Program-made: the position numbers and the translations under genes
Source: Chiloscyllium plagiosum
Taxonomy: Eukaryota
DNA length: 64,000 nt
Assembly (NCBI RefSeq): GCF_004010195.1
Contig: NC_057718.1
Span: 92,026,039 to 92,090,038 of the forward strand
Reading direction: 5' to 3'
Part shown: positions 687 through 60,436 of the stretch, in pieces
Numbering within the stretch: the stretch's first letter is position 1
How the letters are laid out: every line of letters starts with the position of its first letter
The notes under the pieces: generated by a model
Databases searched by the model: none
The model's input: the letters and a program-made list of their open reading frames with translations, nothing else
Told to the model about the DNA's origin: nothing

Positions 687-800
687 ATAAAAACAATGAC
701 TGCAGATGCTGGAAACCAGATTCTGGAGGAGAGTGGTGCTGGGAAAGCACAGCAGTTCAGGCAGCATATGAGCAGTAAAACCGACATTTCGGGCAAAAGC
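687..800 (-). mobile_element. Penelope-like element family B terminal fragment, truncated inside hammerhead stem II
   Basis: Reverse complement reads gcttttgcccgaaatgtcgg...ccagaatctggtttccagcatctgcagtcattgttttt, matching other family B termini. Flanked by direct repeat aagtagtag (678-686, 801-809). Confidence 0.8.
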
Positions 801-3800
801 AAGTAGTAGCCAACCCATATGCTTCTTTGAAGAAAAAAAGGCCAATTTTAACTCAAACTGTTGAACTCAACAGTTCAATGACACCCTGTGACTATTGGTG
901 GATCTTTAAGCACATTGCCCAAAACTGCTTAAATTCTTCTACTATTTATGCATTGTGAAGTTTTTTCAATCACTGATTTTAAAAAAAAAGCTAGAATTTT
1001 TTTTGTATCTGAACATTCTCTAACAATGTCATTCTCATACGCCTGAAATGGGGTTTTCTGTCACTGCCAGCAGAATTCAGAAATTCAATCAAGCAGCCAA
1101 ATACAATCCCTAGGGTTTACCAGCAACATTCTTTGCAAGCTTTCTCAGTTTACAATGGTCACATTTAAATTTAAGATTGCCTTCCTTCCAAAAACAGAGG
1201 CATCATATTTTGGAGCAGGAATAAAACACAAAACACCAAAGTACTGTAATAAAATCACCCATTTACAGTGCATGTCAAGTCTTGCTGCTTCTACATCCTG
1301 ACCATTTCCTCAACCAAGGAAAATTGCTCAATTGCATTTCTATCTGTGGGTGTATATAAATTACAATCATCTTGTAGAATAAAAAATAATTATGGTTATA
1401 GACTAGCTTATTTTTGAGCACTGCATACCGGCAAATGAACAAATCAATTCCATAACCATGTGCCTGTATTTGCTTTGAAAAACATCATAGGTATCATATT
1501 TTTAAAAAAGAAACATTTGCATCCAAACATATCCTTCCCAAATTTCTTTACAAATCCTCAGTGGCCATATTCAATCCTCTATCAAACCTACACCCAAGTA
1601 TTTCAAATTGCAACAGCATAACATCTGATGCAACATGAACAACGCGAGAGGATATATATCCATTTACTTTGAACTTTAATCACTGAATTACAGCTGATCA
1701 AGGGTTTATTTATAATGGTGGATAAATACCCATGACTTGAGTCAAATATTTGCAAAGCAAAAGGTTTGAGCTAACCAGAAAATAAGACCTCCCAATATAG
1801 CCCAGATACCACATTTACAAAAGTCTCTACTGGTTTCACAAGGAACTGCAAATCTAAATAAAATCAGAAGCCACTTCAGCAGAAACTAGGATTCAACATT
1901 GTTTTAGAAATAAATTGCATCTATATGACAATTTTAACAACATAAATCATATCAAATTTCCTGACAGAAACATAATGAGGAAAACAAATCAAAGTGGAAG
2001 GAGGACGCCTTAAGATCATGAATATATGCTTGTTAAATCATAAGGATGTTAAGGCTGTTCTTAAAGCAAAACAGAATAGTAATAGGACACAAGTAGATTT
2101 CTAGAATTAGGTAACAGAAAACAGAATACACAGCCACAAATGTGAAAAAGAAACAAAAACTGCACAAATTTAACAGAGTTCAAAAGTTGGAGGTCTGCAG
2201 AACACATCCAAAGTTTGTTTCTGTTTTCTTATATTTTGTCAAAGTCTTGTTCAGCATTAAACTATACCCCCATTATGGTGTCACCCACAAATTTAAATAT
2301 TGTGCTTCATTTACCCAAGTCCAAATCATTTCTATCTATGATTAATAACACTGGTACCAGCATGGATTCCTCTGGAGCACCATCTTCAACTTTCCACCAA
2401 GCCTGACCAAGTACCTTTAACACTCACTGTTGTTGGTTTCAGTTATTTTAGTCAATCTGTTGAGACATACCATGACATGCTTCTGGTGCAAGTGATACTT
2501 GAACCTGGATCATTAGCTTAGAGGTTACCACGACCCACAAGACCTCATTCTTGGTTTTACGGCTAGTTAGCTATCCAATCATTCTAATTGCCCTGACTGC
2601 ACATGTTGAGTCCAAAATACTGTAGAATGCAGAGGTCTTTTGAAAACAAGTGTAAAAATACTCCCAAGATGTTCTTTATCTACTGTTACTTCTTCAAAGG
2701 ATTGTTCAAGATTGAAAGTTGTCCAAACGTATCCTTCCCTTTTTAAATCCATGCTGTAAACCATTTTTCAGATTCTAGACATTTTTCAGTTCCACCTTTC
2801 TTCAAATATTCAATATCTTTCATGCTGCTCACATTTAGCTAATTGGTTAATAATTTTGAGGATCTGTTCCTTTGTCCTTTTGACAATAATAATTCCAGCT
2901 TAAACCTGAAGATGTGTTTGCTATCTTTCCTTCTGCTTCTTTTGTGTACACAGAGATGTAACCCACTTTGAACAGAAGATCAATGTCGCCAACAGTCTGG
3001 CTCAACCATGGACAATAGCAACGATGAAATGGTATCATTGGCATTGGGAAGATGGAAGCAGTGGCAATTACTAATGTTTAACTGGGAAAGGTTATCGCTT
3101 CTCAGGCCTGAATATCAGGCATTATTCACACAGTCTGAAAGCATAAAGAGTGTTATCATCATGTGTCATAATTTGCTGATTCTCGAAAGGAACAGAATTT
3201 GGATGAGGAAGAGAATGGGGCCAAAGGACATATTATGAAAAATTCAGGCATTTCATTTCCAAATGCAAGTTCCATTGTAAACCAGTACAATACCTCCATG
3301 GTTTCTTGTTTTGTAACAAATAAACAAAGTCACATACCATAGGTATCTAAGCTTCAAATGACTGATACACCAGCAAGCTAACTGACTTGCAAATAGTCAC
3401 AAGTTTGCAAACAAAACTACAATTAGCTCCAAAACTCCAAACACCTTTAAGTTCCACTTCGAGAATCATATCAAAAACTATTTCAGTTTTCATGCTGATG
3501 AACTATTGCCCTTAGGGTACAGATGAATGAGCATCCTTCAAACATGACGACACATTCTCATTTCAGTTAACTGTTGAAGTATGAAACCAAGTAGAAACCC
3601 TATTCTTGATAATTTATTTACAGATTGCAGCAGTATACATGTCTGATTCTTATCTAGTACCGACCCTGTTATCCAAACACATATCCATTTCACGTGTGTA
3701 CTCCAGATACTCAACATCTTAACCAATATCACCCAGCCAGTTATTCTTGAACAAACTGAAGTCTTGTGGTTCAGCATTAATGTCCCTATCTCTAGTCAGA

Positions 3801-4591
3801 GTCATTTAGCTCAGTTGACTGCTTGGCTGGTTTCTGATAAGAGTGATGATAACAGCATGGTTCAAGTCCCACGCTGGCTGAGATCAACATGAAAGTCCCA
3901 TCTCTCAACGTAAGGACACTAACACACTGTTGCAGAAAATTAAGTGTTACCTTTTCTCAGGTAGCTTACAGAAAGAAGTCCATGACACACTGCAGGTGAG
4001 AAATTGAACATATTAGAGTTTGAGGAATGCAAGGGTTACACCACATTTAAAATTACAAATCAAAGTAATCTCTCTTCAGGCCTTTTGTTCGTGTGTTTAA
4101 AACTGTAGATATTTATTAATTGCTTACTATGAAGGATCGAAGTTGACTAAATATCAAGTTCCAGCAATTTACTTTGCATTTTATACTCAATATTAAAATC
4201 CTGTTATTTCATAAGTTCATAGATTGAAAAATAACATTATTTCCATGTACACTAGTATTGCAGGTTGCCAAAAATCATACTAACATGGTACAATTTTTCA
4301 GGCACTCTAATCAAGTATGTGCTGCTGTACCACATTTTATAGTAAACACAAAGTGAAGTAGATGCTCTTTGCTGACAATTGCTTTAATCTGAAAAGTTCA
4401 CATAGCCTAGATGTGAACATATCATTCTAGGATACGTACAAGCTTAAGCAAACAGAACTAAATTCAACGAAATGCACTGAAAGAATACAAAATAACTGAC
4501 ATATCCTCTCAGTGCTGTAACTTTTCTTTTTAATCAATTTCATGCTGATTTCTGAAAGCAATTATGATTTTATTTAAAAATTGCATAACAG

Positions 4592-4710: not shown

Positions 4711-4754
4711 AAAATGGGAGACATTGTACCTTGTAAGGATAAAGCAATAAATAT

Positions 4755-6670: not shown

Positions 6671-6679
6671 ATATTCCAG

Positions 6680-9636
6680 CTAACTACAGATAACAGATAG
6701 GGATAACATTAATAAAGGGAAGAACAGGCAGAGAGCAGGTGAGCGCAGAAGAACTGGTGGCCTGAAATGCATCTACTTTAATGCAAGGAGTATAGTGTGT
6801 AAGGCAGATGAACTTAGGGCTGGATTGCTGCGTGGGAGTATGACATTATTGCCATCACAGAGACTTGGCTGAAGGAAGGGCATGATGATTGGCAACTAAA
6901 TGTTCCAGGATATAGATGCTTCAGATAGGACTGGGAGGGAAGTAAAAGAGGGGGTGGAGTTGTGTTACTGGTCAGGGATGATATCACGGCTGTGCTAAAG
7001 GAGGACACTATGGCAGTCTTGGTTAGTGAGGCATTATGGGTGGAGCTGAGAAATAAGAAGGGTGCAGTTACATTGTTGGGGCTGTATTACAGACCTCCCA
7101 ACAGTGAGCGTGAGGTAGAAGAACAAATAGGTAAACAGATTATGAATAGGTGTAGAGGCAATAGGGCCGTGATATGGGGGAATGTTGGGAAAATTAAAAT
7201 TGACTGGGATACACTTAGCATCAGAGGTCTGGATAGAGTAGAATTTGTATTAAGTGTCCAGGAGAGTTTTCTAGAGCAGTATGCCAACAGTCCAGCGAGG
7301 GAAGGGGCCATGTTGGACCTGGTACTGGGGAACGAGCCAGGACAAGTGGTAGAAGTTGCGGTGAGGGATTTCTTTGGGAACAGTGAGTTTGTAAGTTTTA
7401 GAATACTCATTGATAATTCTATAAGTTTTAGAATACTCAGATAAAGAAGAGAGTGGTCCTCAGGGAAGAGTACTAAACTGGGCCAAAGCCAATTATATCA
7501 AAATTAGACAGGAGCTGGGAAATGTGGATTGGGCACAGCTATTTGAAGTGAAGTACACATTTGAGATGTGGGAGGCTTTCAAAGATAGGTTAATGGTAGT
7601 GAAGGATAAGCATGCCCCGTTGAAGGCAAAGGACAGGAAGGGCAAGATTGGTGAACCATGAATGACAGGAGAAATTGTACGACTAGCCAAGAGGAAAAGG
7701 GAAGCATACATAAGGTCTAGGCAGCTAAGAACAGAAAGGGCCCTGAAGGAATCTCGGAAGAGTAGGACAAGTCTTAAACAAGGAATCAAGCGGGCGAAAA
7801 GGGGTCATGAAATAACTTTAGCAAGCAGAATTAAGGAAAGTGCCAAAACATTTTATTCTTATATAAGAAGCAAGCAGGTAACTAGAGAAAGGATTGGTCC
7901 ACTGAAAGGTAATGAAAGAAAACTGTGTGCCGAACCTGAGAGAATGGGTGAGATTCTGAATGATTACTTTGCATCAGTGTTCACTGAGGAGAGGAACATG
8001 ATGAATCTTGAGATTAGGGATAAAAGTTTGATTAGTCTGGATCATGTTGGCAAACGTAGAGAAGATGTATTGGGTATGCTAGGGGTTATTAAGGTGGACA
8101 AATCCCCAGGACGGGATGGAATCTATCCCAGGTTGCTCAGGGAGGCGAGGGAGGAAATAGTTGAGGCCCTGACAGATATCTTTGTGGCATCCTTAAATAC
8201 AGGTGAGGTGCCGGAGGACTGGAGGATAGCTTATGTTGTCCCTCTGTATAAGGAAGGTAGTAGAGATATTCCAGGTAACTACAGACCAGTGAGCCTGACG
8301 TCGTTGGTGGGGAAGTTGCTGGAGAGGTTACTAAGAGATAGGATCTATTCATATTTAGAAAAGATAGTGATAGGCAACATGGTTTTGTGCGAGGGAGATC
8401 GTGCCTTACCAACTTAATAGAGTTCTTCGAGGAAGCGACCAAGTTGTTAGATGAAGGAAGGGCTGTTGATGTCATATACATGGACTTTAGTAAGGCATTT
8501 GATGAGGTTGCCCATTGTAGACTAATGGAGAAAGTGAAGTCACATGGTGTGCAGGGTATTCTAGCTAGGTGGATAAAGAACTGGTTGAGCAACAGGAGAC
8601 AGAGAGTTGAAGGGAGTTTCTCGAAATGGAGAAAGGTGAAAAGTGATGTTGCACAGGGGTCAGTATTGGGGCCACTGTTATTTGTAATATACATAAATGA
8701 TCTAGAAGAGGGCACTGTTGGTATGATCAGCAAGTTTGCAGATGACACAAAGATTGGTGGAGTAGTAGAAAGCATAAGGGACTGTCAGAGAATACAGGAG
8801 GATATAGATAGCCTGGAGAGTTGGTCGGAAAAGTGGCAGTTGGCTTTCAATCCAGACAAATGTGAGGTGATGCATTTAGGCAAGTCTAATTCTCGAGCGA
8901 ATTATGGGAAAAGTTGATGGGCAGAGAGATCTGGGAGTGCAGGCCCATTGTACCCTGAAGGTTGCTGCACAGGTGGATAGAGTGATCAAGAAGGCATATA
9001 GTATGCTTGCCTTCATTGGACGGGGTATTGAGTATAAGAGCTGGCAAGTCATGTTAAAATTGTACAAGACATTAGTTCGGCCACACTTAGAATATTGTGT
9101 ACAGTTCTGGTCGCCACATTACCAAAAGGATGTGGACACTTTGGAGAGGGTGCAGAGAAGGTTTACGAGGATGTTGCCTGGTATGGAAAGTGCTAGCTAT
9201 GAAGTTGAGGTTGAGTAGGTTAGATTTGTTTTCACTTGAAAAAAAGGAGATTATGGGAGGACCTGATTGAGGCTTACAAAATCATGACGGGGATAGACAG
9301 GGTGGATAGTGACAAGCTTTTTCCCCAGAGTGAAGGATTCAATAACCAGAGGTCATGCTTTCAAGGTGAGAGGTGGAAAGTTAAAGGGGGATACACGCAG
9401 CAAGTACTTCACACAGAGGATGGTAGGCGTTTGGAAAGCGTTGCCAGCAGAGGTGGTAGAGGCAGGCACAGTAGATTCATTTAAAATGCATCTGGACAGA
9501 TGCATGAGTAGGCGGGGAGCAGAGGGATACAAATGGTTAGGAATTGACCAACAGATTTAGACAGTACATTTAGATCGGTTCAGGCTTGAAGGGCCAAAAG
9601 GCCTGTTCCTGGGCTGTAAATTTTCTTTGTTCTTTG
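6680..9636 (+). mobile_element. CR1 LINE with near-complete but frameshifted ORF2 (APE endonuclease plus RT)
   Basis: Endonuclease motifs CIYFNARS, AITETWL and YYRPPNS. RT motifs KSPGRDGIYPRLL, NYRPVSLTS, QGSVLGP and FADD. C-terminal TRGHAFKV and a ttctttg tail. Split across several ORFs (6962-9560). Confidence 0.95.
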
Positions 9637-13200: not shown

Positions 13201-15571
13201 CAGATCATAGGTTTGGAAGATAAAGTGGTTTGTATGTGTCAAGTATTTTGAGTGCTGCAGCAACTGAATTCATGTGATCAAGTGAACAGTGCTCCAGCAA
13301 ACTCCGCAGAAGTGCTATGCAAATCATTGAGAAGTTATGGAGAGTTGGAGACAAATTACATGCCACAAAATTCTCAGCTGCCAACCTGTTTCTCAAAGCT
13401 ACATTATGCATTGGGTCAGCCGAGTCAAGTTGATAAACTAACCCCCTCAAACAGATCAACTCATTTGTGCGCCCTCTTTAAAATTGTATCATTTAGTATA
13501 GATTCCCTCTCCTGCTGATCACGTGTATCACTTCAGCAGTTAGTGATCCGGTTTGGAGCTTATAAAGACAAATCATATATTTTAATGAATTGTGAAACAC
13601 TGGTGAATGACAATTGGTTATCCACGTATACAAATCAGTAAAAACTAATTAACAGGCCAAAAAAGTAAGCAAACATTTATTAAACTGTTTAAGGGCAGTT
13701 ATATAAAGCCTCAGTGACATCCTATTTAGAATACTTTATAGACCAAAGGGTCTGATTCCGTGCTGTATGAGTCTATGAAGGTTTGGCACCTCATCTGAAG
13801 ACATATAACATTTGTTGAGGAGATACATGTACAGATTTGTACAAAGGTTTAAAGAGTTAAGTTACAAGAAAGACTGCATAAATTTGAATTATGTACCTTT
13901 CAGTTTGGAAAACTTACCACTTAACTGTTTGAAATATTAAAATGACTCAATGGAATGGAAAGACTGAAGCTATCATGTATATAAATTTCCTTGGACATGG
14001 TACACTCCTATTTGGGCAATATTATTGTGTCATACTCCTCAGATCAGATATTAAAACCTTCATCTGTAATGACAATAGATGGCATTACATATGACTGTCA
14101 CAGTGTACCCAGAAGACAATTAAGTTACCTAGTCATCTCCTGAAAGTGTCAATAGCCTTGAATACTTAGGTGTCTAGAAATGGATTCAAGCCCTGTGATA
14201 GAGGAAGTGCAACTTAAAATATAATGATCCAATCCCTGAATTAGCAAATGACAGTTGCAACCTGCAAGTAATAAAACAGCTGAAGTGAATAAAAGTCAAC
14301 AACTAAGCAGTCACACTTAGTCCAAACAAAATACAACCATGAAAAGTGGAAGACAGCTGATCAATTCGGATGATAACAATTTTAAAAATTAGATGGCCTC
14401 TTAATATATTCTCTATTATTACGCCCGCCATCACTCAAGCTCTTCTACTTGTCAACAAGATCTCAAAATCCAAAAGCTCCAAATTCCTAATAATACACCC
14501 ATAGAATCACTTGAACTTAAAAGTTCATTTAATTCTGATTTTCTATAGGTGATGCCATGAGTGATCCTCTTGTTATCGAAGGAGGTAGAATTCAATTGAA
14601 AAATCAAAGAACATTTTTATTTGATCTGCAAACAAATGCACTCCAAAAATCTAAAGTTAAACATGCCATTTTTCCATATCAAATCTACAAGTGTGTATAT
14701 TTCGATTGATGGAAGAGAAGAATTTAGATGAATTCCCAAGCTATGATACATGACTTTCTAGCCTAGGACATAGAGGTCATATATAATTTTAATTGATGAA
14801 CTCCTTAAGCAGCTGTACAAAACAATACAGTTGCCAATGCATTTGGCATGCAGCATAAAACTGCTCCCAATTAAGCACAAATATCAATTTCACTCAAAAG
14901 CCAAGAGATGTGCTGAAAAATAACAATGCAGAAACATGTTTGCCCTTGAATTAGAAAGAATCAAATTGTTTGGTCAGAATACAGAGAATACCAATTTGCC
15001 TCGAACCGTGGCAACTTGACCCAGACTGCTTGTTGCGAAAAAAGTAGACAAAATGGAATGTTCCATTCACCACCGCAGCATTGTTTCCTTTACTAAGCAC
15101 AAACTAAATCCCAAAGAGTTAAGTTTGGTTAATCAGTAAGTAAAGAGTTCAATAAGCCTTGTATCATACAGCATACATCAGGGTTCTCCAAGTTCCAACC
15201 TTTCTCAGCCAAATAAAGCGAATACTGTTTTTACGCTTCTTTAATTCACACTATCGATGGCTTCCGGGGACCTCTCTTGTCCTCACTGCCTGGATTCTGC
15301 AAACGACAGCACTCTCCTAACGTCCTCAGATAAACAAACTAGAGAACCCGGTGCTCCACTCATCTCCATGATAACATAGCCTGCACAATGAACTTTACCA
15401 TGACATTTAAGGCCTACTGAATGCTTTCGAGTTAATTTAGCTTCAAATCCCTCTGCAGTGCCACCATCACAAGCTGACCACAACAAGCTTTGCAGACACT
15501 GTTTCCAGCCAAGCAAACAAGCATAAAAAAAATCCTTTGCGAATTCGGAGTCTATCATTCTTCAAACAAAG

Positions 15572-15783
15572 TTAAAAATCACATGACAGCAGGTTATAAT
15601 CCAACCGGTTTATTTGGAGACATGAGGTTTCAGAGCACCATTCCTTCATCAGGTGCTCCACAACCATCTGATGAAGGAGCAGTCCTCCAAAACCTAGTGC
15701 TTCCAAATAAACCTGTTGGATTATAACCTGGTGTCGGGTAATTTTTAACTTGGTACACCCCAGTCTAACATCGGCACATCCAA
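15572..15783. mobile_element. Penelope-like family A fold-back element with two decayed hammerhead motifs
   Basis: Inverted arms ttaaaaatcac...ccttcatcagg and ctgatgaaggagc...tttttaac, with an extra tail on the right arm. Direct repeat atcattcttcaaacaaag at 15554-15571 and 15784-15801. Confidence 0.85.
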
Positions 15784-17931: not shown

Positions 17932-18840
17932 TTCGTGAAGTTGCCTGGCTCCGCACATCGAAGTCCTTCACAGCGCTCTGCGTGGAGTTGGGGTTTCAAG
18001 GCGTCCTCATCCACGGTTAAAAATTACATACCAGGTTTATTTAGAAGCACTAGTTTTCGAAGCGCTGCTTCTTCATCAGGTGGCTGTGGAGCAGGACCAT
18101 AAGACACAGAATTTTTGCAAACGTTTACAGTGTTATGTGGCTGAAATATATTAAACAAACTTAGATTAGGTCTTTCATCTTTTAGAATGGCTTTGTTAGT
18201 TTTGGTTTATTGATATCTATGTAAAACCCAGAACTCTTTTTAAGTTACAGTCTCAAGATAACTTTAGGTTTTCTAAAGAAATGTGTCATTTCAGCTCAGA
18301 CAATGCATTAAAGGGGTGAGGTTAAAGTCTGTCTGTGTCCCAATCTTGAGTCAGACTGGTTCTATTTCTAAAATGTGATTTACAGAATCTTACATGGATT
18401 GACTGTAGGTTATGCATTTTTTGAGTAAAGTATAATTGCAAATACAGATTAGCCCATAAATTTGTGCAGGAGAGACAGAGTGAGTGCACGTGAGAGTGTA
18501 TGTGTGAGGGAGTGTATAGTGTAGTGGGGTCATCTGTAGTGTGACATGAACCCAAGGTGCCGTTTGAGGCCTCAACTGGGACCTTGAGTTCATGTCACAC
18601 TGCAGGTGACCCCACGGCACTATATACTCCCACATATACACTAACACAGGCCCTCTCTCACAGGCACAGACATACACGCCCCACGCAGACACCCTCTCCC
18701 AGGCTGATACCCCATCACACTCACACACATACTTAACCAAGTGTATACACACTCTTAGGAGAAAGTGAGGACTGGAGATCAGAGCTGAAAATGTGTTGCT
18801 GGAAAAGCACAGCAAGTCAGGCAGCATCTAAGGAGCAGGA

Positions 18841-18880
18841 GAATCGACGTTTCGGGCATGAGCCCTTCTTCAGGAATGAG
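18841..18880 (-). ncRNA. Minimal type I hammerhead ribozyme motif, core intact
   Basis: Reverse complement: cucauuc CUGAAGA a GGGC ucau GCCC GAA ACGU C gauuc. Confidence 0.7.
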
Positions 18881-18975
18881 GCTATCAGAGCTGAAAATGT
18901 GTTGCTGGAAAAGCACAGCAGGTCAGGCAGCATCCAAGGAGCAGGAGAATCAACGTTTCGGGCATGAGCCCTTCC

Positions 18976-19014
18976 TCATTCCTGAAGAAGGGCTCATGCC
19001 CGAAACGTCGATTC
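18976..19014 (+). ncRNA. Minimal type I hammerhead ribozyme motif, core intact; predicted cleavage after C19009
   Basis: CTGAAGA 18982-18988, an extra A, stem II GGGC/GCCC, GAAA, palindromic ACGT and a GTC triplet. Confidence 0.7.
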
Positions 19015-19904
19015 TCCTGCTCCTTGGATGCTGCCTGACTTGCTGTGCTTTTCCAGCAACACATTTTCAGCTATACACACTCTCACATGTACTCACACAC
19101 ACTCATTCTGTCTCTCCATGCACATATATTATTTTATGCGGTAAACCTGTATTTGTAGAATTACATTTTATTTTGCTCAAAAAATGCATAACCTACAGTC
19201 AATCCATGTAAGATTCTGTAAATCCCACATTAGAAATAGAACCAGTCTGACTCAAGATTGGGACACAGACAGATCTTAACCTCACACCTTTAATGCCTTG
19301 TTTGAGCTGAAATGACACATTTGTAAGAAGAACTGAAGTTATCTTGAAAATGTAACTTAAAAGGAGTTCTGGGATTTACATATTAACAAACGTAAACTAG
19401 CAAAACCATTCTAATAGATGAAAGACATAATCTAAGTTTGTTTAATATATTTCAGCTATACGACACTGTAACATTTGCTATAAATTCTGTGTCTTATGTC
19501 CTGCTGTACAACCACCTGATGAAGAAGCAGTGCTTTGAAAGCTGGTGCTTCCAAATAAACCTGTTGGACTATAACCAGGGTGTCGTGTAATTTTAACTTT
19601 GTCCACCCCAGTCTAACTCCAGCTCCTCCAAATCACTCATCCAGGGTGTCCACCTCAGGGTTGTGCCTGTGCAGTGGTGAACCAAGACAGTGTGGAGGCC
19701 GGGCTTTGCGTTCCCACATCCCCATGACCCCACCCACTATCCAGCACATGGTGAGTATTTTGCAACATCTCCATACCCAACAATAATGAATGGTGTTTGG
19801 CTGTAAACATTTTCGTCCAATTACTCACACATATGGTGATACACATCCGGTTGGAAAACTTAAACTGAGCCCTACCACTGCAACACAAGAGCCCTAATTA
19901 ACCT

Positions 19905-26036: not shown

Positions 26037-26264
26037 TTCTGGATTAGTGGTGCTGGAAGAGCACAGCAGTTCAGGCAGCATCTAAGGAGCTTCGAAATCG
26101 GTGTTTCGGGCAAAAGCCCTTCATCAAGAATGCTTTATTCCCGATGAAGGGCTTTTGCCCGAAACGTCGATTTCGAAGCTCCTTAGATGCTGCCTGAACT
26201 GCTGTGCTCTTCCAGCACCACTAATCCAGAATCTGGTTTCCAGCATCTGCAGTCATTGTTTTTA
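26037..26264. mobile_element. Penelope-like family B fold-back element
   Basis: About 95-bp inverted arms meeting near 26130, plus a tail tggtttccagcatctgcagtcattgttttta. Direct repeat cctcaactatttgga at 26022-26036 and 26265-26279. Confidence 0.9.
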
Positions 26265-29398: not shown

Positions 29399-29594
29399 AT
29401 GGAAATGTGTTGCTGGAAAAGCGCAGCAGGTCAGGCAGCATCTAGGAAACAGGAGAATCGACGTTTCGGGCATTAAGAAGGGCTAATGCCCGAAACGTCG
29501 GTTCTCCTGTTCCCTAGATGCTGCCTGGCCTGCTGGGCTTTTCCAGCAACACATTTCCATCTCTGATCTCCAGCATCTGCAGACCTCACTTTCT
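29399..29594. mobile_element. Penelope-like family B fold-back element
   Basis: Inverted arms meeting at about 29473 inside the hammerhead. Direct repeat ccacataatgcagag at 29384-29398 and 29595-29609. Confidence 0.9.
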
Positions 29595-30183: not shown

Positions 30184-30195
30184 CGCCCAAGACGT

Positions 30196-31444: not shown

Positions 31445-32175
31445 CAGTCATTGAGTCATAGGGATATACAACACGGAAACAGACCTTTCGGATCCAACTC
31501 CTCCATGCCAACCAGATATTCTAAATTAATCTAGTCCCATTTGTCAGCACTTGGCCCATATCCCTCTGAACCCTTCCTATTCTTATACTCATCCAGATGC
31601 CTATTAAATGTTATAATTGTACCAGCCTCTAACATTTCCTCTGGTGGCTTATTTCATACACGCACCACCCTTTTGTGAAAAAGTTGCCCCTTAGGTCCCT
31701 TTTAAATTTTACCCCTGTCACCCTAAACCTATGCCCTCTAGTTCTGGACTCTCCCATCTAAGTAAAAAAACCTTGTCTATTTACCCTATCGATGTCTCTC
31801 ATGATTATACAAACCTCTATAAGATCACCCTTCAGCTTCTGATGCTCCAGCGAAAAAAGTCCCAGCCTATTCAACCTCTCCCTATAGATCAAACTTTCCA
31901 ACACTGGCAACATCCTTGTAAAGCTTTTCTGAACCCTTTCAACATCCTTCCTTTCAAAGGGAGACCAGACTGGCACACGGTATTGCAAAAGTGGCCTAAC
32001 CAATGTCTCATTCTTGATGAAAGGCTTATGCCCGAAATGTCGATTCTCCTGCTCCTCGGATGCTGCCTGACCTGCTGTGCTTTTCCAGCACCACATTCTT
32101 GACTCTGATCTCCAGCATCTGCAGTCCTCACTTTCTCCTAACCAATATCCTGCAGAGCTGCAACATGGCTTCTAC
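31445..32175 (-). mobile_element. CR1 3' fragment interrupted by a Penelope-like terminus
   Basis: ORF 31758..32096 includes TLVRPLLQY..WSP..RKDVERVQKSFTRMLP; CR1 tail at about 31445-31560. Confidence 0.85.
32005..32136 (+). mobile_element. Penelope-like family B terminus with mutated hammerhead
   Basis: cattcttgatgaaaggcttatgcccgaaatgtcgattctcc...catctgcagtcctcactttct. Direct repeat cctaaccaat at 31995-32004 and 32137-32146. Confidence 0.85.
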
Positions 32176-32264: not shown

Positions 32265-33690
32265 AAAGTTAAAAATCACACAACACCAGGTTATAGTCCA
32301 ACAGGTTGAATTGGAAGCACTAGCTGTCGGAGCACTGCTCCTTCATCAGGTGGTTGTGGAGGACACAATTGTAAGGCACAGAATTTATAGCAAAAGTTTA
32401 CAGTGTGATGTAACTGAAATTATACATTTAAAAATACTGTGATTGTCTGTTGAGTCTTTCATCTGTTCGAATACCATGATAGTTTCACTTCTTTCATGTG
32501 GAAATCACAAAACTTTTTTTTTAAATTGCATTCTCAGGTTAACTGTAACAATTGGTGTTAGCTAGGCAATATGTTGAAGGTGTTAACCCCCTGTGTTCTC
32601 TGTCTTTGCCATGATGTTTAGGTTGATTCTAATCTAAAAAGTGAGATAACAGAGTTTTACATGAATTCATGCAGTTTTTGAGCAAAGTACAATGTAACTC
32701 TACAAGTATAAATCCACCCCACAAACATATATGTATATATGTCCATGTGGATCTTTGTGTGTGTGCGTGTATGTGTGTCTGTCTGTCTGGGTTGGGGGTT
32801 GGGAGTGTGAGAGAGTGTGTATATGTGTGTGTATGTGAGTGTAGAATGTCTTAAGTCTGTGAGGGAGTGTGTGAGTGTGTGCGTGTGTGTCTGGGGTGGG
32901 GGGTTGTCAGTGTCTGTGAGAGAGAGTGTATATGTATATGTGTGTGTATGAGTGTGGAGTGGTCTAAGTCTCCGAGAGAATGCATGTGTGAGGTTGAGAG
33001 TGTATGTGTCTGTAAGGGTGTGTGTGTGTGTCTGTGTGCGGGTCTGTGTATATGGTGTGTCCGTGTGTATGTGTGTGTGTACAGGAGTGCCTGTGTGTGT
33101 GCAATGGTGGTCACCTGTAGTGTGGCATGAACCCAAGGTCCCAGTTGAGGCCCTCCCTATGGGTATGGAACAGCTATCAGCCTCTGCTCGGCCACTTTTC
33201 ACTGCTGCCTGTCCCGAAGTCCACCTTGAAGGATGGTCACCCCAAGGTCCGAGGTCGAATGTCCTGGACCGCTGAAGTATTCCACAACTGGGAGGGAACA
33301 CTCCTGTCTGTTGATTGTTGAGCAGTGCCCATTCATCTGTTGCCGTAGCCTTTGCTTGGTTTCCCCAATGTACCATGCCTCAGGGCACCCTTGTCTGCAA
33401 CGTATAAGATAGACAACATTGGCTGAGTTACATGATTACCTGCCATGTACATGGTGGGAGGTGACCCCACATGTAATGGTGATATCCATGTCCACACTCT
33501 GACATGTCTTGTAGCGCCTACCGTGACAGGGTTGTATGGAGTTGTCCTGCGAGCCGGGCAGTTTGCTACAAACAATGATCTTTTTGAGGTTTGCCGGTTG
33601 TTTAAAGGCAAACAGTGGAGGTGTGGAGAAGGTATTGGCAGGTGCTCATCCTCATTGATAATGTGTTGCAGGTCATGAACTGTATTAGAC
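32265..33690 (-). mobile_element. Penelope-like element family A, 5'-truncated: GIY-YIG endonuclease relic, CA-rich 3' UTR, hammerhead terminus
   Basis: Minus-strand frame VVYLIRCRQGCPEAWYIGETKQRLRQQMNGH...[14 protein letters not shown] (stop 33111-33113). Terminus cacCTGATGAaGGAGCagtGCTCCGAcAGCTAgtg near 32318-32355. Confidence 0.9.
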
Positions 33691-34400: not shown

Positions 34401-34424
34401 ATAAGAGTGGGAATCCTGAGGTCT

Positions 34425-38559: not shown

Positions 38560-39261
38560 GCGATATGACAGTGCCAGTGTTGGTCTGGGTTGGACAAGGT
38601 CAGAAGTTACACACCACCAAGTTATAGTCCAACAGGTTTATTTGAAATCACAAGCTTTCGGAGCACTGCTCCTCCATCAGGTAAAGTGAAGAGAAGCACA
38701 CAGACACAGAATGTATTTATTTATAAGATCAAAGATCATTTAACTGGTGTGTGTGGACTGTTGATAGGCTGATAAACAAGTCTCTGCGAGTTGTCAAAAT
38801 TGTCAGATGGTGTTTCATAGTTTATTCACACTATCTGACACTTTTGCTCACCAACAGAGACTTGTTATTCAGCCTGTCGACACTCAATGCACACCATTTA
38901 TATGACCTTTTGATCTCTCTGCCTATAAATTCTGTGAGGTAAAAACAATGACTGCAGATGCTGGAAACCAGATTCTGGATCAGTGGTGCTGGAAGAGCAC
39001 AGCAATTCAGGCAGCATCCGAGGACAGGCAAAATCGACGTTTCGGGCAAAAGCCCTTGAAGGGCTTTTGCCCGAAACGTCGATTTTGCCTGTCCTCGGAT
39101 GCTGCCTGAATTGCTGTGCTCTTCCAGCACCACTGATCCAGAATCCCTATAAATTCTGTGCCTGTTTGTTTCACTTCACCTGATAAAGGAGCAATGCTCT
39201 GAAAGCTTGTGATTTCAAATGAACCTGTTAGACTATGACCTGGTGTCAGTGACTTTTGACC
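38560..39261. mobile_element. Penelope-like family A (variant) fold-back element, inverted near 38820
   Basis: Diverged inverted arms, each with a decayed hammerhead (GAAAGCTT variant). Direct repeat ttgttaaatt at 38550-38559 and 39262-39271. Confidence 0.82.
38937..39145. mobile_element. Young Penelope-like family B insert forming a perfect 87-bp-arm palindrome
   Basis: Arms 38971-39057 and 39059-39145 with a 1-nt loop; 34-nt tail at 38937-38970; TSD cctataaattctgtg at 38922-38936 and 39146-39160. Confidence 0.93.
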
Positions 39262-39269
39262 TTGTTAAA

Positions 39270-39615
39270 TTACAGAGTGGATGTTGGGAAAATGTTCCCA
39301 TTGATAGGAGAGACTAGGACATGAGGGAATAGCCTAAAAATAAAGGGAAGATCTTTTAGAACAGAGATGGGGAGAAACTTCCTAAGCCAGAGAGTGGTGA
39401 ATCTATGGAATTCATTGTCACAGAAGGTTGTGGAGTCCAGGTCATTGAGTGTGTTTAAGACTGAGATAGAAAGGTTCTTGATTGTTAAGGGGATCAAGGA
39501 TTACCAGGGAGAAAGCAGGAGAATGAGGTTGAGAAACTTATCAGCCATGAATGAATAGTGGAGCAGACTCGATCAGTTGAATGGCCTAACTTCTACTCCT
39601 GTGTCTTATGGTCTT
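39270..39615 (+). mobile_element. CR1 3' end fragment
   Basis: ORF 39367..39558 RNFLSQRVVNLWNSLSQKVVE; tail ending tcttatggtctta. Confidence 0.85.
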
Positions 39616-42600: not shown

Positions 42601-42678
42601 TGCAAGAATCTATTTTGGGGCCACTGCTGTTTTTCATTTTTATAAATGACCTGGATGAGGGCGTAGAAAGATGGGTTG

Positions 42679-45090: not shown

Positions 45091-46289
45091 GGATGAAAGG
45101 GGTTAGTAAATTTGTGGATGGCACTAAGGTCGTTAGAGTTCTGGATAATGCTGAAAGGTGCTGCAGGTTGCAGGAGGACATAGATCACGGCACAGCTGGG
45201 CGGAGAAGTGGCAAATGGAGTTTAATGCAGAAAAGTGTGAAGTGATTCACTTTGGAAGGAGCAACAGGAATAAAGAGTACTGGGCTAGTGGGAAGGTTCT
45301 TGGTAGTGTAGATGAGCATAAAGATCTCAGTGTCCATGTACATAGATTCCTGAAAGTTGCCACCCAGGTTGATAGGGTTGTTAAGAAGGCATACAGTGTG
45401 TTAGCTTTTATTCATAGAGGGATTGAGTTTCGGAGCCATGAGATCATGCTGCAGCTGTACAAAACTCTGATGAGGCCGCACTTGGATAATTGCATACAGT
45501 TCTGGTCACTGCATTACAGGAAGGATGTGCAAGCTTTGGAAAGGTTTTGGAGGAGATACACTAGGATGTTGCCTGGTATGGAGGGAAGGTCTTCTGAGGA
45601 AAGGCTGATGGACTTGAGGCCATTTTTGTTAGAGAGAAGGAGGTTGAGAAGTAACTTAATTGAGACATATAAAGTAATCAGAGGGTTGGATAGGGTGAAC
45701 AGTGAGAGCCGTTTTCCTCGGATGGTGATGTCGAGGGGACATAGCTTTAAGTTGAGAGGTGGTAGATGTAGGACAGATGTCAGAGGTATTTTCTTTACTC
45801 AGAGAGTAGTAAGAATGTGAAACGCACTGCCTGCAACAGTAGTAGACTCGTCAACTTTAAGGGCATTCAAATGGTCATTGGATAAACATACGGATGAAAA
45901 TGGGAATAGTGTAGGATAGATAGGCTTCAGATTGGATTCAACAGGTCGGTGCAATATCGAGTGTTGAAGGGCCTGTACTGCTCTGTACTGTAATGTTCTA
46001 TGTTCTAGAAGCTAATAGTCTTTACAACAAGGTGTGTGGGCCAGGTGCATCAGGAAGGTTTTGCACTGGTCCTCCGAGCTTAACGTTTTGTCTTAGGTGG
46101 GATATTCCCTTTCAAAGGCCCCATCACCCAGGATCAATGTCTGGGCCTCTATCCCCACTGGAATCAGAGATCAGATCCACCTTCCAGTCTAGCAGTTGGA
46201 CTTTGTAATCTTATCATGTTCCTAATCCAGTTGTACACTCCCTACCTGGGCATGCACACTGTTCCTGTGTGGCTCATTGGGTCTAACAG

Positions 46290-48125: not shown

Positions 48126-48567
48126 TTCAAAGATCTCCTCAGTCGAAATGGTGGTTGTCAGGTGTGATTTCCATCTTGGCAGGACTTTTGAAACTTAATT
48201 TAGGGAATTTTCAAGTTAAAGATTTTAAAATCGAAATATCCTTCAACATCTTTTTCTTTACAACTCTACAATATCAGAACTGCACAGTCATAAGAGTACA
48301 TAATAATCATTCCCTACAAACATCAAATACTTACACACTTGTAATAAATTAGCTGCTTTCTCACAGAGCATGAAGATCCCAGTGAACCAATTGCCATAGC
48401 CAAAGAACATCAATCATTGCCATCTCACTTCAGCAGACTCTGGCAAAAGTGTACACACTGTAGGAGAGGTTTTTTAATCTTGCTACTGAACAGACACAGA
48501 GTGTTGCCCTAAAGACTCGTGAAGAAGAGGCAGTTGATAAGCTGTTGGTGACAAAAAGCTGCTGTCA

Positions 48568-49263
48568 GGTAGAGGATCCTTTCACATCCGGCAAAGGTTT
48601 TCCTGCATATCCACCCACTTCATCTACTGTGTCCGTTGCTCTCGATGTGATCTCCTGTACATAGGGGAGACAGGACGCCAACTTGCGGAGCATTTCAGGG
48701 AACGTCTCTGGAATACATGTACCAAATAACCTGAACTTCTTGTGGCCGACCACTTCAACTGCTCCTCCCACTCCCCCGAGGACATGCAAATCCTGGGCCT
48801 CCTCCACTGCCAAATCAAACCCACCTGCCAACTGGAGGAAGAACACCTCATCTTCTGCTTTGGGACCCTTCAAACACATAGCATCAACATCAACTTCACT
48901 AGCTTCCAAATCTCCCCTCTCCCCACCTCATCCCAGGTCCAACCCTTCAATTCGGCACTGCCCTCTTGACCTGTCCTATCTGTCCATTTTCCTTCCCATC
49001 TGACTGTTCCACCCTCCCCACCGACCTATCACAATTACTTCCCATCTGCATCCACCTATCGCCTTCTCGGCTACCTTCCCCCCAGCCCTACCCCCACTCC
49101 CTGTTAATCTCTCAGCTCCCTTTCCCCTCCACATTTCTAATGAAGGGCTTATACCTGAAATGTTGACTCTCCTGCTTCTCGATGTTGCCTGACCTACTAT
49201 GATTTTCCAGCGCCCCACTTTTCGACTCTGGCACTTCAACATCTGCAGTCCTCACTTTCTCCT
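48568..49263 (+). mobile_element. Penelope-like element family B, 5'-truncated: GIY-YIG relic, pyrimidine-rich 3' UTR, decayed hammerhead
   Basis: Plus-strand frame FSCISTHFIYCVRCSRCDLLYIGETGRQLAEHFRE..*PELLVADHFN..QLEEEHLIFCFGTLQTHSINI. Terminus ctaatgaagggcttatacctgaaatgttgac..catctgcagtcctcactttctcc. Confidence 0.9.
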
Positions 49264-50309: not shown

Positions 50310-50945
50310 CAAATACAGAGAATGCTGGAGAAACCCAGCAGGCCTGGCAGCATCTGTGGAGAGAGAAAAACAGAGTTAACATTCAAAATCAGTATGATTT
50401 TTCTTAAGAACTGAAATGTTATTTTTATACATTGGACAGCGCCGAGGAGGAGCAAGACAGCAGATGGTATAGCGGCCCCATGCAAAATACAAAGGGGCTG
50501 TTAATAGTGGAGGAAAAAAATGTATAGAGGGTGGAAATTAAAGTGTGAAAGAGGCTGTTAATAGTGTAGAAAATACAAAGGGGCTGTTAATAGTGGAGAA
50601 AAAAAATTATATAGAGGTTGGAAATTAAGGTGTGAAAGGGAGAGAATTGGTCCTACCTACCAAGTGCAAAGTAAATAAGACACAAACCCAACATGGTTGT
50701 GAGGTTGAATAGAATGTAAGAAAATGGAGGGCAGACAGAAGAAGGGCACTTTCTAAAGTTACTGAATTCAATGTTGAGACCTCAATCTCTAGCATTCCTA
50801 AACGGAAAATGAGGCATTGTTCCTGGAGATTGTACGGTGATTCATTGGAATAATGCAGCAGGCCTAAGAGGGAAATATCATCATGGGAGCAAGATGCTTT
50901 ATTGAAATAGCAAGCAACTGGGAGGTTAAGGTCATTCAGAGGCAG
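50310..50945 (-). mobile_element. Older Penelope-like element (family C) 3' part
   Basis: ORF 50625..51164 contains NLPVACYFN..SHDDISLLGLLHYSNE..LQEQCLIFRLG, homologous to the GIY-YIG C-terminus at 48742. Terminus resembles 36245-36357. Includes an 86-bp tandem duplication at 50484-50640. Confidence 0.7.
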
Positions 50946-57086: not shown

Positions 57087-59005
57087 TTTTTTCTCAGATA
57101 TTTTTATTGAAAATTTTAACATGTTTTAACAAGTTTACAAAAGAAAACTAAAAAAAAGACCAGTTAAATCTTAAATAAATGATAACCAAAATCTATCAAA
57201 CAAGAAAACAGAAATACCAAGAGAACAAAAAGACAAAATTTAACTAACTACTCATCTAACTTACAACTAACCAGAGTGTATCCTTAAAATTCTTACATTA
57301 TTCAAGAGAAAAAAAAATCCAACAGATAACACATAAATTGAGCAGTGATATACATGCTTGGAATGTGTTAACATCAGATCACAACAAAACCCGTATTTAT
57401 CCAAAACATCCTGAGCATAGAGCATATAAAATTCACGAAAGTAAAAGCTCTTTAGTGCATTCAGATCAATATAATAAAAAAAACTGTTTCTAAATAGTAA
57501 AAAAAAAATGTATTTAAATGGAGATCTTCCCCCTTATTCCCAAGGGGCATCACTTCCTTTCCAAAAAACCCATCATAACCTCTCCCAACCAGTGCCCCAC
57601 CCTTGCCCCAGCCACCCCTCGATAGGATAAAGAAAATTGAAGTATACTACTGAACTAGAACTAACAGTGAGTACCCTATCCCCCACCCACACCCACACCA
57701 ACACCAACACCTGGATATATTTGGTAATGTTAATACCATATATGAACATATATGACTATAAAATTACAGTCTCAGCAAATAATAATTAAATATATTAATA
57801 CAAAATAAGAGGGGAAAACAACCCTGCTCCCAAGGACAAGGATAAAATAAGATAAAGTAGCCACCTTCCCCCCATCTACATTAACTAGACCCCCTGGCCT
57901 ATATATATATATAAAAAAAAAAGGAAAGGAAATCGCTAAGTAAAGGATGAATAAATAAACCCTTCTTCCCACCCCCCGGAGATAATATTAAACAGTAAGA
58001 TAATGAAAGGAAAAAAAAAGGGTGAGTAAACCGGGGTGGGGGTAGGGCAAAACAACATCAATTAAATCTTATAATTTGTCTAAGAGAGTCCAAAAGTTCC
58101 TTGGCCTTCTCCGGTGATCCGAAGTTATACACGGACCCTTCATGGCTAAAGCGTAGTATAGCAGGGTAGCGCAAGGAATATTGAATGTTTAAATCCCTTA
58201 AACGCTTCTTTGCTTCATCAAACGCCTTCCTCTTTCGGACCAAAGATGGAGAAAAGTCCTTATAGCTCTGCAGCCGGAACAGGACTGGGCGGGGACGCTG
58301 GTTCAAGCCGGGCCCGCGTATTGCAACCCGGTAGGCCCAGTCTACCCTTTACCTGGCCTGATCCAGCCTCCAGATTCAATAACTGCGGAAGCCACTGGTC
58401 AAGGGACCTTGTAAGCTGACCTTCTTCTTCCCGTTTGGGAAGGCCCAGCAAACGAATATTTTTTCGACAACCTCGATTCTTGATGTCGTCAATGTGATTC
58501 TCTAAGGTCCGGACTTGCTGCTCGAGAGTCCGGACCCGATCCATAGACGATTCTGCAATGGCCTCAGAGGTCGCGGCATTTAGCTCCACCCCTCCGACTC
58601 GGCATTCAATTTCTTCGATGTCTCGGCCGTACTTTTGTAGCGTGGCCGAGAGTGCATTCCATCGACTTCGGGACTCTTCTATGAAAGCATCGATCTTCGC
58701 GTTGAGTTTGGAGATTATTTCCGCGAGGCTAGCCACCGTAGGTAAGTCCCCTGGGGTGGCTGCGGACGCCTCTGCTGCAGCTGGGGAGCGTGGGGGATGG
58801 GCTCCTGCCTGCTGAGAACTGCGGGCTCCTTTCCTCCTAGTCATTTTTACAGGAGACTGAACTGTATAAATTTAGTACTAAACCACTAATTATGTTAAGT
58901 AAAAACTATTTTTAATTGATTTGGTGAGTGTGGTGGAGGAGGGTGGCCCACTTTGCCTGGGTCTTGGGAGGAGCACTATAGACTCAGACTTGCTGAGTCG
59001 CCGCC
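57087..59005 (-). mobile_element. ORF1-only L1-clade element (half-L1/HAL1-like), 1919 bp
   Basis: GC-rich 5' end ggcggcgactcagc, L1-type ORF1, no recognisable ORF2, aataaa plus short A tail at the 3' end, TSD gcggttcac at 57078-57086 and 59006-59014. Confidence 0.8.
58058..58844 (-). pseudogene. L1 ORF1p (coiled coil, RRM, CTD), frameshifted near 58345
   Basis: Heptad-like region, then DDIKNRGCRKNIRLLGLPK (compare L1 NRxRRxNIRIxGLPE), RPRPVLFRL, DFSPSLVRKRKAF and LRYPAIL; split between ORFs 58260..58844 and 58058..58306. Confidence 0.88.
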
Positions 59006-60226
59006 GCGGTTCACGTTTTATACACAGCATGTGTATCAGCTCCTGTTTACGGAAGGATTTTGTGGATTTAAAGATCAACTTATATGCTAGAAGCTACAAT
59101 ATAGCAAAAGATAAAACGATGAGTCAGTTACTTATGTAATTTATTATTAACACAATAGTTATCCTTATTCGCTGACTGGGTTTCCTGCTATTCTTTCACA
59201 CCTAAAATTTGCTACCTTTATGACATCAATATGCTATTCCCAGAGTACTATTTTAAAACAGGCTTTAACCTATTTATTTCAATTTGAAATAAATCAATTA
59301 TTGGTCACAAACTATTTCTAATTTTTCATTTCATGCTGGGACAGAGTTTGCTATCAGACTGTGGTTTAAAACAGAAAATGGATTAAGTTAGAGATCAGCA
59401 GATAGTAGAGGTAGATTAGAGGTCAGGTAAGAGGGCATGGGGAGGAAGAGAGAAAAAAAGATGCAAAGAAAGAGCTATGAGATTAAACAGGTGGAAGGAG
59501 AGGATAATTCAACTATGAAAAGGCGTGAGAGAGTACACAGACAGGAGGCCGAGAAATGGGGAGAGGTGGTGATGGGAGGAGAGCGGGGCACGAGAACTCA
59601 GAAAGTGCAGATAACTTATTATTACCTTGCATTTGTCCTTTTAAATCACTCTGCAAGCTTTTGTTTGTTAGACTGCTTTGAAACTTAACATTTATCACAT
59701 TAGAATGATTTTTGTTCAATTGTCACATTCACAATAATTCGAAGAAATGTTTTGAATGGCGCTTAAGTCAAGAAAATTCTGAGTGTGGACTTTTTATCTG
59801 AATTATTTACCCAATGCACACTGAAAACAGATGCACTTCTTAAAAATACTAAATAAATTTTCTCCACTGACTTGCCATAGGGTAAGATCTCTAACTGTCC
59901 CATGATCACAGTCAAGTTAAGCACTTTTCCTCAGTGAAACTATTCATCCAGTATGCAGGAAGGAAGATCAAAACATGTACAAGGAAGTTCAACAATTCAT
60001 ATTTGGAGCTACTTGTGCATGAATTCTACAAACCATCAAAGGTAAATCAGAAGTTTAAACTTGGACCAGATATATCTTTCTGAACTTGAAGTTTGCTCAA
60101 GAACTTCTTGGGCCAGGTGCACTAACAGACTAATAGATTCATTGTTCCCAAGTCCTAAACTGCACATCCCAACCCAGATACAACCTGTTACTCCAGTGGT
60201 GCAGAGATGATGACTAAGTCAGAAAG

Positions 60227-60436
60227 TTATGATTTGGAGATGCCGGTGTTGGACTAGGGTGTACAAAGTTAAAAATCACACAACACCAGGTTATAGTCCA
60301 ACAGGTTTAATTGAAAGTACACTAGCTTTCGGAGCGACGCTCCTTCACAATCACCTAATGAAGGAGCATCACTCCGAAAGCTAGTGTGCTTCCAATTAAA
60401 CCTGTTGGACTATAACCTGGTGTTGTGTGATTTTTA
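60227..60436. mobile_element. Penelope-like family A fold-back element
   Basis: Inverted arms meeting near 60348, with the tail atgatttggagatgccggtgttggactagggtgtac on the left. Direct repeat actaagtcagaaag at 60213-60226 and 60437-60450. Confidence 0.9.

Follow-up and report, generated by a model that had tools for sequence, protein, structure and literature searches.

Canonical EN+ Penelope-like elements (PLEs) insert as units made of an inverted pLTR, one or more direct pLTRs, a tail of 30-40 bp and a target-site duplication (TSD) (Arkhipova et al. 2013, PMC3846280; Craig et al. 2021, PMC8557442). The minimal hammerheads of metazoan PLEs were described by Cervera and De la Pena (2014, PMC4209133), who already reported the extra A and opposite-strand motif pairs, the dual motifs of Schistosoma lying 100-700 bp apart; the consulted portions of that paper make no mention of sharks. 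For the Poseidon element of Anolis carolinensis, studied in vitro (Frangieh et al. 2024, PMC11167929), both strands were cut and extended, reverse transcriptase (RT) started at two sites spanning the tail, and cleavage was not needed; the later steps are left unvalidated there, and the consulted text yielded no description of head-to-head products. Non-LTR retrozymes have been surveyed with one chondrichthyan in the sample (Li, Clavereau, Pollet 2026, bioRxiv 10.64898/2026.07.22.740005). A whale shark paper merely lists Penelope as present, and we found no prior description of the two shark families treated here in the literature consulted, whose figures and supplements may list shark motifs.

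We analysed fold-back insertions of these two families, A and B, in a 64-kb stretch of shark DNA (the window). The fold-backs are probably dead, extremely 5′-truncated insertions of two Neptune-type Penelope-like families, most plausibly twin-primed cDNAs joined head to head in one step. In each hairpin the PLE's ribozyme-bearing end is present twice, the two copies set head to head and likely assembled anew at each insertion, and a new self-copying element is an unlikely reading of the fold-backs. What they represent is the already described PLE insertion pattern in very short form, with new shark members.

Fold-back insertions in the window

Twelve A/B insertions occupy 8.6% of the window; eight are fold-backs, six of them short. 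The preliminary description had listed eight palindromic insertions flanked by direct repeats of 10-18 bp, some overlapping the element ends, and we recovered all eight as inverted repeats with TSDs of that length, including the overlaps. A TSD was also found at 32005; at the two coding relics a convincing one was sought and none was seen. The tail carried by one arm only, previously put at roughly 25-40 nt, measures 28-43 nt by coordinates in seven of eight fold-backs and reads 58 nt in the insertion named 18017 (18018..19635), because its tail-less arm bears an internal deletion. The insertions, and two hammerheads within one of them, are as follows.

687..797 (-): single tailed arm of family B1 whose start lies within hammerhead stem II; candidate TSD, imperfect, 669-686 / 792-809
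15572..15783: family A short fold-back, tail-less arm (-), tailed arm (+); TSD 15554-15571 / 15784-15801, 18 bp
18018..19635: family A long fold-back, ~1.3 kb without nested 18756, tail at right; TSD 18006-18017 / 19636-19647, 12 bp, 1 mismatch
18756..19071: family B2 three-armed insertion, nested in 18018..19635; TSD 18744-18755 / 19072-19083, 12 bp
18843..18881 (-): candidate minimal hammerhead of type I, core intact, C3 at 18873
18974..19012 (+): candidate minimal hammerhead of type I, core intact, C3 at 18982
26037..26264: family B1 short fold-back, tail at right; TSD 26022-26036 / 26265-26279, 15 bp
29399..29594: family B2 short fold-back, tail at right; TSD 29384-29398 / 29595-29609, 15 bp
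32005..32136 (+): single tailed arm of family B2 whose start precedes the hammerhead core by ~8 nt; TSD 31995-32004 / 32137-32146
32265..33680 (-): family A 5′-truncated coding relic with decayed CxxC linker and GIY-YIG (33114-33680), 3′ UTR, hammerhead (C3 at 32349) and tail-less end
38560..39261: family A medium fold-back of a divergent subfamily, ~480 bp without nested 38937, tail at left, centre ~38820; TSD 38550-38559 / 39262-39271, 10 bp exact, 13 bp with 1 mismatch
38937..39145: family B1 short fold-back with identical arms, tail at left, nested in 38560; TSD 38922-38936 / 39146-39160, 15 bp
48568..49263 (+): family B2-like 5′-truncated coding relic with GIY-YIG (48565-48918), 3′ UTR, decayed hammerhead (C3 at 49137) and tail
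60227..60436: family A short fold-back, tail at left; TSD 60213-60226 / 60437-60450, 14 bp

These insertions grade from single arms into short hairpins and on to the long fold-backs 38560 (~0.5 kb) and 18017 (~1.3 kb), each of which hosts a nested B element with its own separate TSD. The arms of 18017 extend to the last codons of the ORF and meet at a short palindrome (~18569). The 316-bp insertion at 18756 is built from two direct arms (-), the outer one tailed, and one inverted tail-less arm (+), a miniature of the EN+ PLE unit with two direct copies and one inverted (PMC3846280; PMC8557442). The earlier suggestion that hairpins of about 200 bp are a major outcome of transposition survives in part: short hairpins are frequent (6/12, in this window), and the ~200-bp size class (196-228 bp) takes in five of the eight fold-backs rather than all.

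Canonical EN+ PLE units (PMC3846280; PMC8557442) share with the shark insertions the head-to-head inverted copy, the tail at one end, the TSD, and a palindrome or overlap at the inverted junction. Most shark units, in contrast, lack the ORF altogether and consist of just two ends of 80-130 nt; their TSDs of 10-18 bp compare with 8-10 bp in rotifer PLE examples, and their density in the window is very high.

A reading as DNA-transposon MITEs or assembly artefacts could appeal to the MITE-like look of long inverted arms with TSDs and to the identical arms of 38937, yet the TSDs vary in length, the tail sits on one arm only, nested copies carry their own TSDs, arm divergence ranges from 0 to 20% over all fold-backs, and the same termini recur in 215,000-281,000 public contigs per run in three organisms. 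A fixed TSD length and symmetric termini, as in MITEs, were not observed, and the six short hairpins have six centres, a small sample. Because the termini are linked to PLE endonuclease relics, we regard this reading as refuted and give it almost no credence. The MITE-like look noted earlier holds for shape and fails for internal structure, since no two hairpins have the same centre.

Coding relics and the hammerhead motif

The A and B termini cap GIY-YIG relics at 33114-33680 (-) and 48565-48918 (+), bearing out the link drawn in the preliminary description from the relics at 32265 and 48568. A Heptranchias protein with an RT (PF00078, 5e-9) and a CX4CxxC linker shares 65% identity with the A relic, and RT is present in the homologs P0008 and P0013 (65% identity, PF00078, DKG motif). 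For the B relic, identity is 53% to P0019 (GIY-YIG, CX4CxxC) and P0020 (RT-end motif and EN). On the relics themselves the Pfam GIY-YIG match is weak (E 0.099 for B, none for A); the B-relic homolog P0019 passes the cut-off (7.6e-5). A CX2-5CxxC linker between RT and EN is the defining mark of Neptune/Nematis (PMC8557442). It has decayed in the A relic, where the second Cys is gone, is intact in P0003 and P0008, and for family B is visible only in P0019, because the B relic begins downstream of it. Judged by sequence, the relatives of both relics are putative RT+EN proteins with the Neptune/Nematis linker; we use the label Neptune in preference to Nematis on the basis of vertebrate distribution (bioRxiv 10.64898/2026.07.22.740005). 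The window holds no RT core, tblastn with P0008 matching only P0008 residues 464-642, and no complete RT+EN parent element was recovered. The relics had been taken to identify the parent elements; the linkage to PLEs stands and exact parentage does not, as the relics are relatives of the fold-back parents, and both B1 (26037, 38937, 687) and the 38560 subfamily are without a coding relic in the window.

Families A and B have only the hammerhead core in common: between them it is conserved and the flanks are at chance level. Within the window, then, with the termini joined to GIY-YIG relics, neither of the refuting outcomes named earlier appeared; the PLE origin and the minimal hammerhead proposed earlier are supported, and our alignments agree with the proposed consensus sequences, CAC CUGAUGA A GGAGC nnn GCUCC GAA AGCU W GUG for A and AUUC CUGAWGA A GGGC UYWU GCCC GAA ACGU C GAU for B. 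Within families, the core-versus-flank comparison gave 0.05-0.13 against 0.17-0.18 over 13 of 21 arms, those keeping the core, and does not decide the matter. The motif, extra nucleotide included, appears by sequence to be the published minimal PLE-type hammerhead (PMC4209133). The descriptor scan suggested at the outset returned 10 motifs, all in A/B arms, compared with one match in 10 Markov-shuffled windows; only two of 21 arms, both in 18756, fitted free of penalty. That insertion alone keeps perfect cores, its middle arm lacking the core start, and four of the six short hairpins have a truncated core on one arm or both. At four broken query-copy positions the majority letter in public contigs (run X2) restores the motif (92, 93, 66 and 99% of depth). 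Exact-motif scans of viral and metagenome contigs gave 0 matches, and Rfam models gave no hammerhead match, only sub-threshold miRNA-hairpin matches. Folding of five isolated motifs formed stem II in four, with z from -1.2 to +0.7, so thermodynamics alone gives the ribozyme no support.

Set against the dual motifs of Schistosoma (PMC4209133), the shark opposite-strand motifs abut or overlap, with 25-58 nt between G12 positions and a stem II of 4-5 bp. Like non-LTR retrozymes (bioRxiv 10.64898/2026.07.22.740005), the fold-backs are short, non-coding and pLTR-derived, with a type I hammerhead; retrozymes, however, are arranged in tandem, head to tail, every unit having its hammerhead, whereas the shark hairpins are dispersed head-to-head pairs whose cores are mostly broken. 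Tandem units with complete hammerheads were not found in the window, two direct arms occurring only in 18756.

Arm ends and the assembly of the hairpins

All 15 short arms begin between about -14 and +12 nt relative to C3, the start of the hammerhead core, with inner ends read by eye, automatic mapping having failed or proved unreliable on older copies. A start at the ribozyme cleavage site (~+28 from C3) was rejected (0/15). The six short hairpins have six distinct centres, with G12-to-G12 spacings of 58 and 46 (A) and 54, 30, 25 and 43 (B). The tailed arm extends further inward at 15572, 26037 and 29399; the tail-less arm does so at 60227 (~11 nt), 18756 (~13 nt past the adjacent arm) and, marginally, 38937 (1-2 nt), so that at these three neither arm plainly copies the other. 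Over the eight of eight tail-less outer ends tested, microhomology totalled 18 nt against 2.8 expected (0/100,000 simulations); at five of nine TSD-bounded tailed ends tested it was 5, 0, 5, 2 and 5 nt, scored against sister copies and possibly 1 nt too high. In the five young elements the arms diverge by 0-5.3%, compared with 6.6-14.5% to the nearest other element. Unlike centres, the longer tail-less arm in three insertions and the excess of outer microhomology therefore favour two target-primed cDNAs joined per insertion over a master hairpin.

TSDs of 10-18 bp, outer end points 28-43 nt apart, same-subfamily arms and copy-specific centres are read directly from the sequence. To produce them, the GIY-YIG endonuclease would nick both target strands with a stagger of 10-18 bp, and each target 3′-OH would pair over 0-5 nt with an element RNA uncleaved at its ribozyme, one at the tail end and one ~35 nt upstream; these two positions would equal the pair at which RT was seen to start in vitro on the anole element. 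Both cDNAs would usually end 80-130 nt on, at the 5′ edge of the hammerhead, where the RNA may start or the RT stall, and host repair would join the two cDNA ends at short chance complementarity. Once completed, the hairpin likely goes no further, its paired arms burying the ribozyme; a transcript of 26037 is predicted to fold into a single arm-arm hairpin (-184.9 kcal/mol). Anolis Poseidon (PMC11167929) offers the same two end points one tail apart, an unprocessed RNA template, and cutting and extension of both target strands. It belongs, however, to the Poseidon clade, and homology between cut DNA and RT start is unreported for it in the consulted text, compared with 0-5 nt in the shark.

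Several observations bear against twin priming. Later deletion at the hairpin tip could create asymmetric centres, and in PMC11167929 the RT initiation site is non-homologous to the cut DNA, in contrast to the microhomology of the shark copies. With only eight fold-backs, each a separate subfamily or at least 6-12% from its nearest relative, the differing centres might equally reflect a handful of small master families. Family A depth in public contigs has no clean step at the hammerhead, and no full RT+EN parent came to light. The private variants shared by arms are accounted for just as well by snap-back or gene conversion.

Such shared subfamily-private variants, with arms 0-5% apart in young copies, also suit self-priming, proposed in PMC3846280. 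Here the inverted arm would be copied from a single target-primed cDNA folded back on itself, or from an antisense RNA as suggested by Arkhipova et al. (2013), and the tail would arise when the endonuclease resolves the intermediate (PMC8557442). Centres placed at short self-complementary words (the 18569 palindrome, an imperfect 7-nt match at 60227) are likewise as it predicts. We nonetheless judge it unlikely: at 60227, 18756 and marginally 38937 the tail-less arm has parent sequence missing from the adjacent arm while the other arm has the tail, both outer junctions look target-primed, and PMC11167929 assigns the tail to two RT start sites.

It seems highly improbable that the hairpins form a non-autonomous family propagating itself, whether as an RT-driven MITE or as a retrozyme-like element, by being transcribed and re-inserted whole. 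Differing centres, a size continuum from single arms to 1.3 kb, imperfect cores in all but 18756 and a ribozyme predicted to be buried in the transcript fold all oppose it. So does the lack of a hammerhead strand-switch joint among 15 listed of 1417, though weakly, because the counting was capped and contigs break at hairpins. Its appeal lies in the six short hairpins among 12 insertions, their similar sizes (196-228 bp for five), the greater depth of termini in public contigs, the capacity of PLEs to mobilise pLTR-flanked sequence in trans (PMC3846280) and the proposed descent of retrozymes from PLEs (bioRxiv 10.64898/2026.07.22.740005).

Beyond twin priming itself, we suggest only tentatively, and think it rather doubtful, that a dedicated short-template pathway operates in shark Neptune-type elements: on an RNA beginning just upstream of the hammerhead, RT would start within the pLTR copy close to the 5′ end, giving strong-stop-like run-off cDNA from both nicks at once. 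Some 10^5 genomic hairpins would then preserve the nick stagger along with the RNA start and the two RT start sites, a minority perhaps being re-mobilised as units.

Abundance in public contigs and significance

By a rough measure, the termini are 13-25x deeper than the 3′ UTR in public contigs; their depth over unique DNA, 1.6-5e5, indicates an order of magnitude and not a copy number. The family A depth profile runs 2.1e6 -> 0.6e6 -> 1.7e6, with no clean step at the hammerhead, and the contigs break at hairpins; RNA run X22 contributed 0 reads. Joints that appeared to skip from B to A were read as chance adjacency of two abundant repeats. A pile of loose ends at 32094/5 was rejected as an exact end map; it comes from clipping where subfamilies vary, 8-15 nt before the tail-less end is reached.

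Because architecture and ribozyme were already known, the value of these insertions is that of a data set, not a new system, and their mechanistic value is modest. Counting across a large set of short TSD-bounded fold-backs could separate twin priming from snap-back. The fold-backs are likely a source of long double-stranded RNA in shark transcripts, and such repeats would be mislabelled as MITEs or, as the sub-threshold Rfam matches illustrate, as miRNA hairpins.

Fold-back insertions and their parent families

All eight palindromic insertions of the preliminary description were recovered by an inverted-repeat scan and self-BLAST of the window, and a boundary search bore out the 10-18 bp direct repeats said to flank each. 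The proposed length of about 200 bp holds for five hairpins (196-228 bp) but not for 18756, 38560 and 18017. Four further insertions are single arms, an arm being one copy of the ribozyme-bearing terminus (pLTR) of a Penelope-like element (PLE), and families A and B together comprise 12 insertions, 21 arms and 5.5 kb, or 8.6% of the window.

A and B insertions by start position (sizes between target-site duplications, TSDs)
687, single arm
15572, fold-back, 212 bp
18017, fold-back, 1618 bp, including a B element nested inside it and itself flanked by a TSD
18756, three-armed fold-back, 316 bp
26037, fold-back, 228 bp
29399, fold-back, 196 bp
32005, single arm
32265, single arm, coding relic of A
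38560, fold-back, 702 bp, including a B element nested inside it and itself flanked by a TSD
38937, fold-back, 209 bp
48568, single arm, coding relic of B
60227, fold-back, 210 bp

Each of the two nested B elements (18756-19071 and 38937-39145) lies within the 3' UTR belonging to an older A fold-back. Such landings account for two of six B insertions, with A occupying about 5% of the window, and may mean a preference for PLE sequence, the sample being too small to press the point.

The A relic translates into a decayed CxxC linker and GIY-YIG domain. Bamboo and epaulette shark proteins match it at 75-78% identity, and a 643-aa Heptranchias protein, which has an RT domain and DKG motif, at 65%. 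For the B relic, identity to two eukaryote proteins is 53%, one of them containing CX4CxxC and GIY-YIG and the other an RT end and endonuclease; the A and B endonucleases share only 28% identity. The homologs point to a shark as the likely host. Because of the linker, both families would belong to the Neptune/Nematis type, as defined in PMC8557442. A search of the window for an RT core found none. A third, decayed GIY-YIG relic (50787-50918, minus strand, about 50% identical to proteins P0019/P0020) is accompanied by a B-related terminus at 50323-50400, the whole spanning 50323-50918 (minus strand). Family A endonuclease sequence also lies inside shark gene models P0010, P0012 and P0014-P0017 (a P450, septin 5a, a PPP1R12A-like protein and a GPCR among them), probably through annotation read-through or exonisation.

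We conclude that the fold-backs are real, with an architecture known from PLEs, and that the shark families appear to be new. The insertion unit of inverted pLTR, tail and TSD already appears in PMC3846280 and PMC8557442, and 18756 reproduces a published PLE unit made up of two direct pLTRs plus an inverted one, compressed to 316 bp; the published texts searched yielded no description of the shark families. The elements fail the membership tests for MITEs and for retrozymes. DNA runs from three organisms gave 251,357, 281,337 and 214,700 contigs matching 741 bp. Terminal bins were 13-25 times as deep as the median 3' UTR bin, a ratio inflated by subfamilies with other UTRs, and about 2-5 x 10^5 times as deep as unique spacer, both figures being rough.

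The hammerhead motif

A hammerhead descriptor matched 10 motifs in the window, every one within A/B arms, against one match in total across 10 shuffled windows, and a stricter scan agreed. The descriptor fits just two arms, the outer ones of 18756, with no penalty. At four positions where the aligned window copy has a broken motif, the majority letter of public contigs repairs it. Majority letters of A and B are identical at 8/8 positions of box 1 and 5/8 of box 2, the mismatches there being an exchanged palindromic pair and the cleavage base; their flanks match at 2/8 and 8/30 positions and do not align. Judged by sequence, the predicted hammerhead is the motif already published by Cervera and De la Pena (PMC4209133), who give the same motif with an extra nucleotide after position 9, a palindrome at 15.2-16.2 and motif pairs on opposite strands. 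In a computed fold, the 26037 read-through transcript would form a single long hairpin with the motif buried.

Junctions, template and arm polarity

Relative to core position G12, outer arm ends form two clusters, one near +59 to +72 and another near +94 to +106, and this spacing defines the tail of 28-43 nt; a single deleted arm, ending at G12+40, lies outside both. Across the eight tail-less ends, microhomology, the match between TSD and template continuation, measured 3, 0, 4, 3, 2, 0, 5 and 1 nt, a total of 18 where 2.8 would be expected; by eye the second of these ends reads 2, an indel having shifted the anchor. It measured 5, 0, 5, 2 and 5 nt at five of nine tailed ends, the other four being omitted as lacking a longer sister copy or serving as references. 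Because microhomology occurs at tail-less and tailed junctions, both outer ends look target-primed; a target preference for pLTR-like sequence predicts an identical signal.

Inner starts of all 15 short arms lie about -14 to +12 of core position C3, and since none (0/15) begins at the hammerhead cleavage site, the template, it appears, was not the 3' cleavage product. This fits the element of PMC11167929, whose substrate is unprocessed RNA; there, both target strands are extended and the tail is bracketed by two RT start sites. Three arms of subfamily B2 share nearly one start point (-7 to -9), and contigs from three runs accumulate at 32015, with low agreement ahead of it; together these hint at a defined RNA end. 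Against this hint, the aligned window copy itself stops at 32015, and the A depth profile has no clean step. By analogy with D. virilis, whose PLE transcript starts within the pLTR and has an intron terminating at hammerhead helix I (PMC2377424; PMC4209133), it is plausible that the RNA starts, or is spliced, close by.

The six short hairpins have six different G12-to-G12 spacings, and the two long fold-backs turn hundreds of bases further inward. Such differing centres make an origin from master hairpins less likely, though with so few copies, drawn from different subfamilies, no more than that. The deeper-reaching arm is tailed in three short hairpins and tail-less in three. Simple fold-back copying of one arm into the other could not yield 60227, whose tail-less arm holds about 11 nt of parent sequence absent from the tailed arm, which in turn carries the tail; later deletion at the hairpin tip could nevertheless produce this asymmetry. 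In each of the five young elements, the arms resemble one another more closely than they resemble any copy elsewhere; for the three old ones the comparison is uninformative. What the fold-back population still offers is a way of testing whether priming is two-ended and where the RNA 5' end lies.

At 36250-36357 lies an old insertion from a third family, related to B, in which a tail-only arm (minus strand, about 35 nt) abuts a tail-less arm (plus strand) that begins inside a decayed hammerhead core. The two arms hardly overlap, and the TSD candidate is weak (9 bp, 1 mismatch). Two separate priming events could have produced this layout, as could a later deletion.

Other features of the window

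21018-21252, assembly gap
21771-21811 / 22018-22058, inverted repeat with 41-bp arms that are 83% complementary and separated by 206 bp, no relation to A/B
36619-36844 / 37700-37925, 226-bp inverted repeat, 99.6% identical
6929-9218, 40839-45820 and 58260-58871, frames resembling decayed CR1-type LINE endonuclease/RT and an L1-like ORF1

The sequence enclosed by the 226-bp repeat, about 855 bp, is decayed and lacks a long ORF; the repeat is possibly an inverted duplication via repair rather than a transposon.
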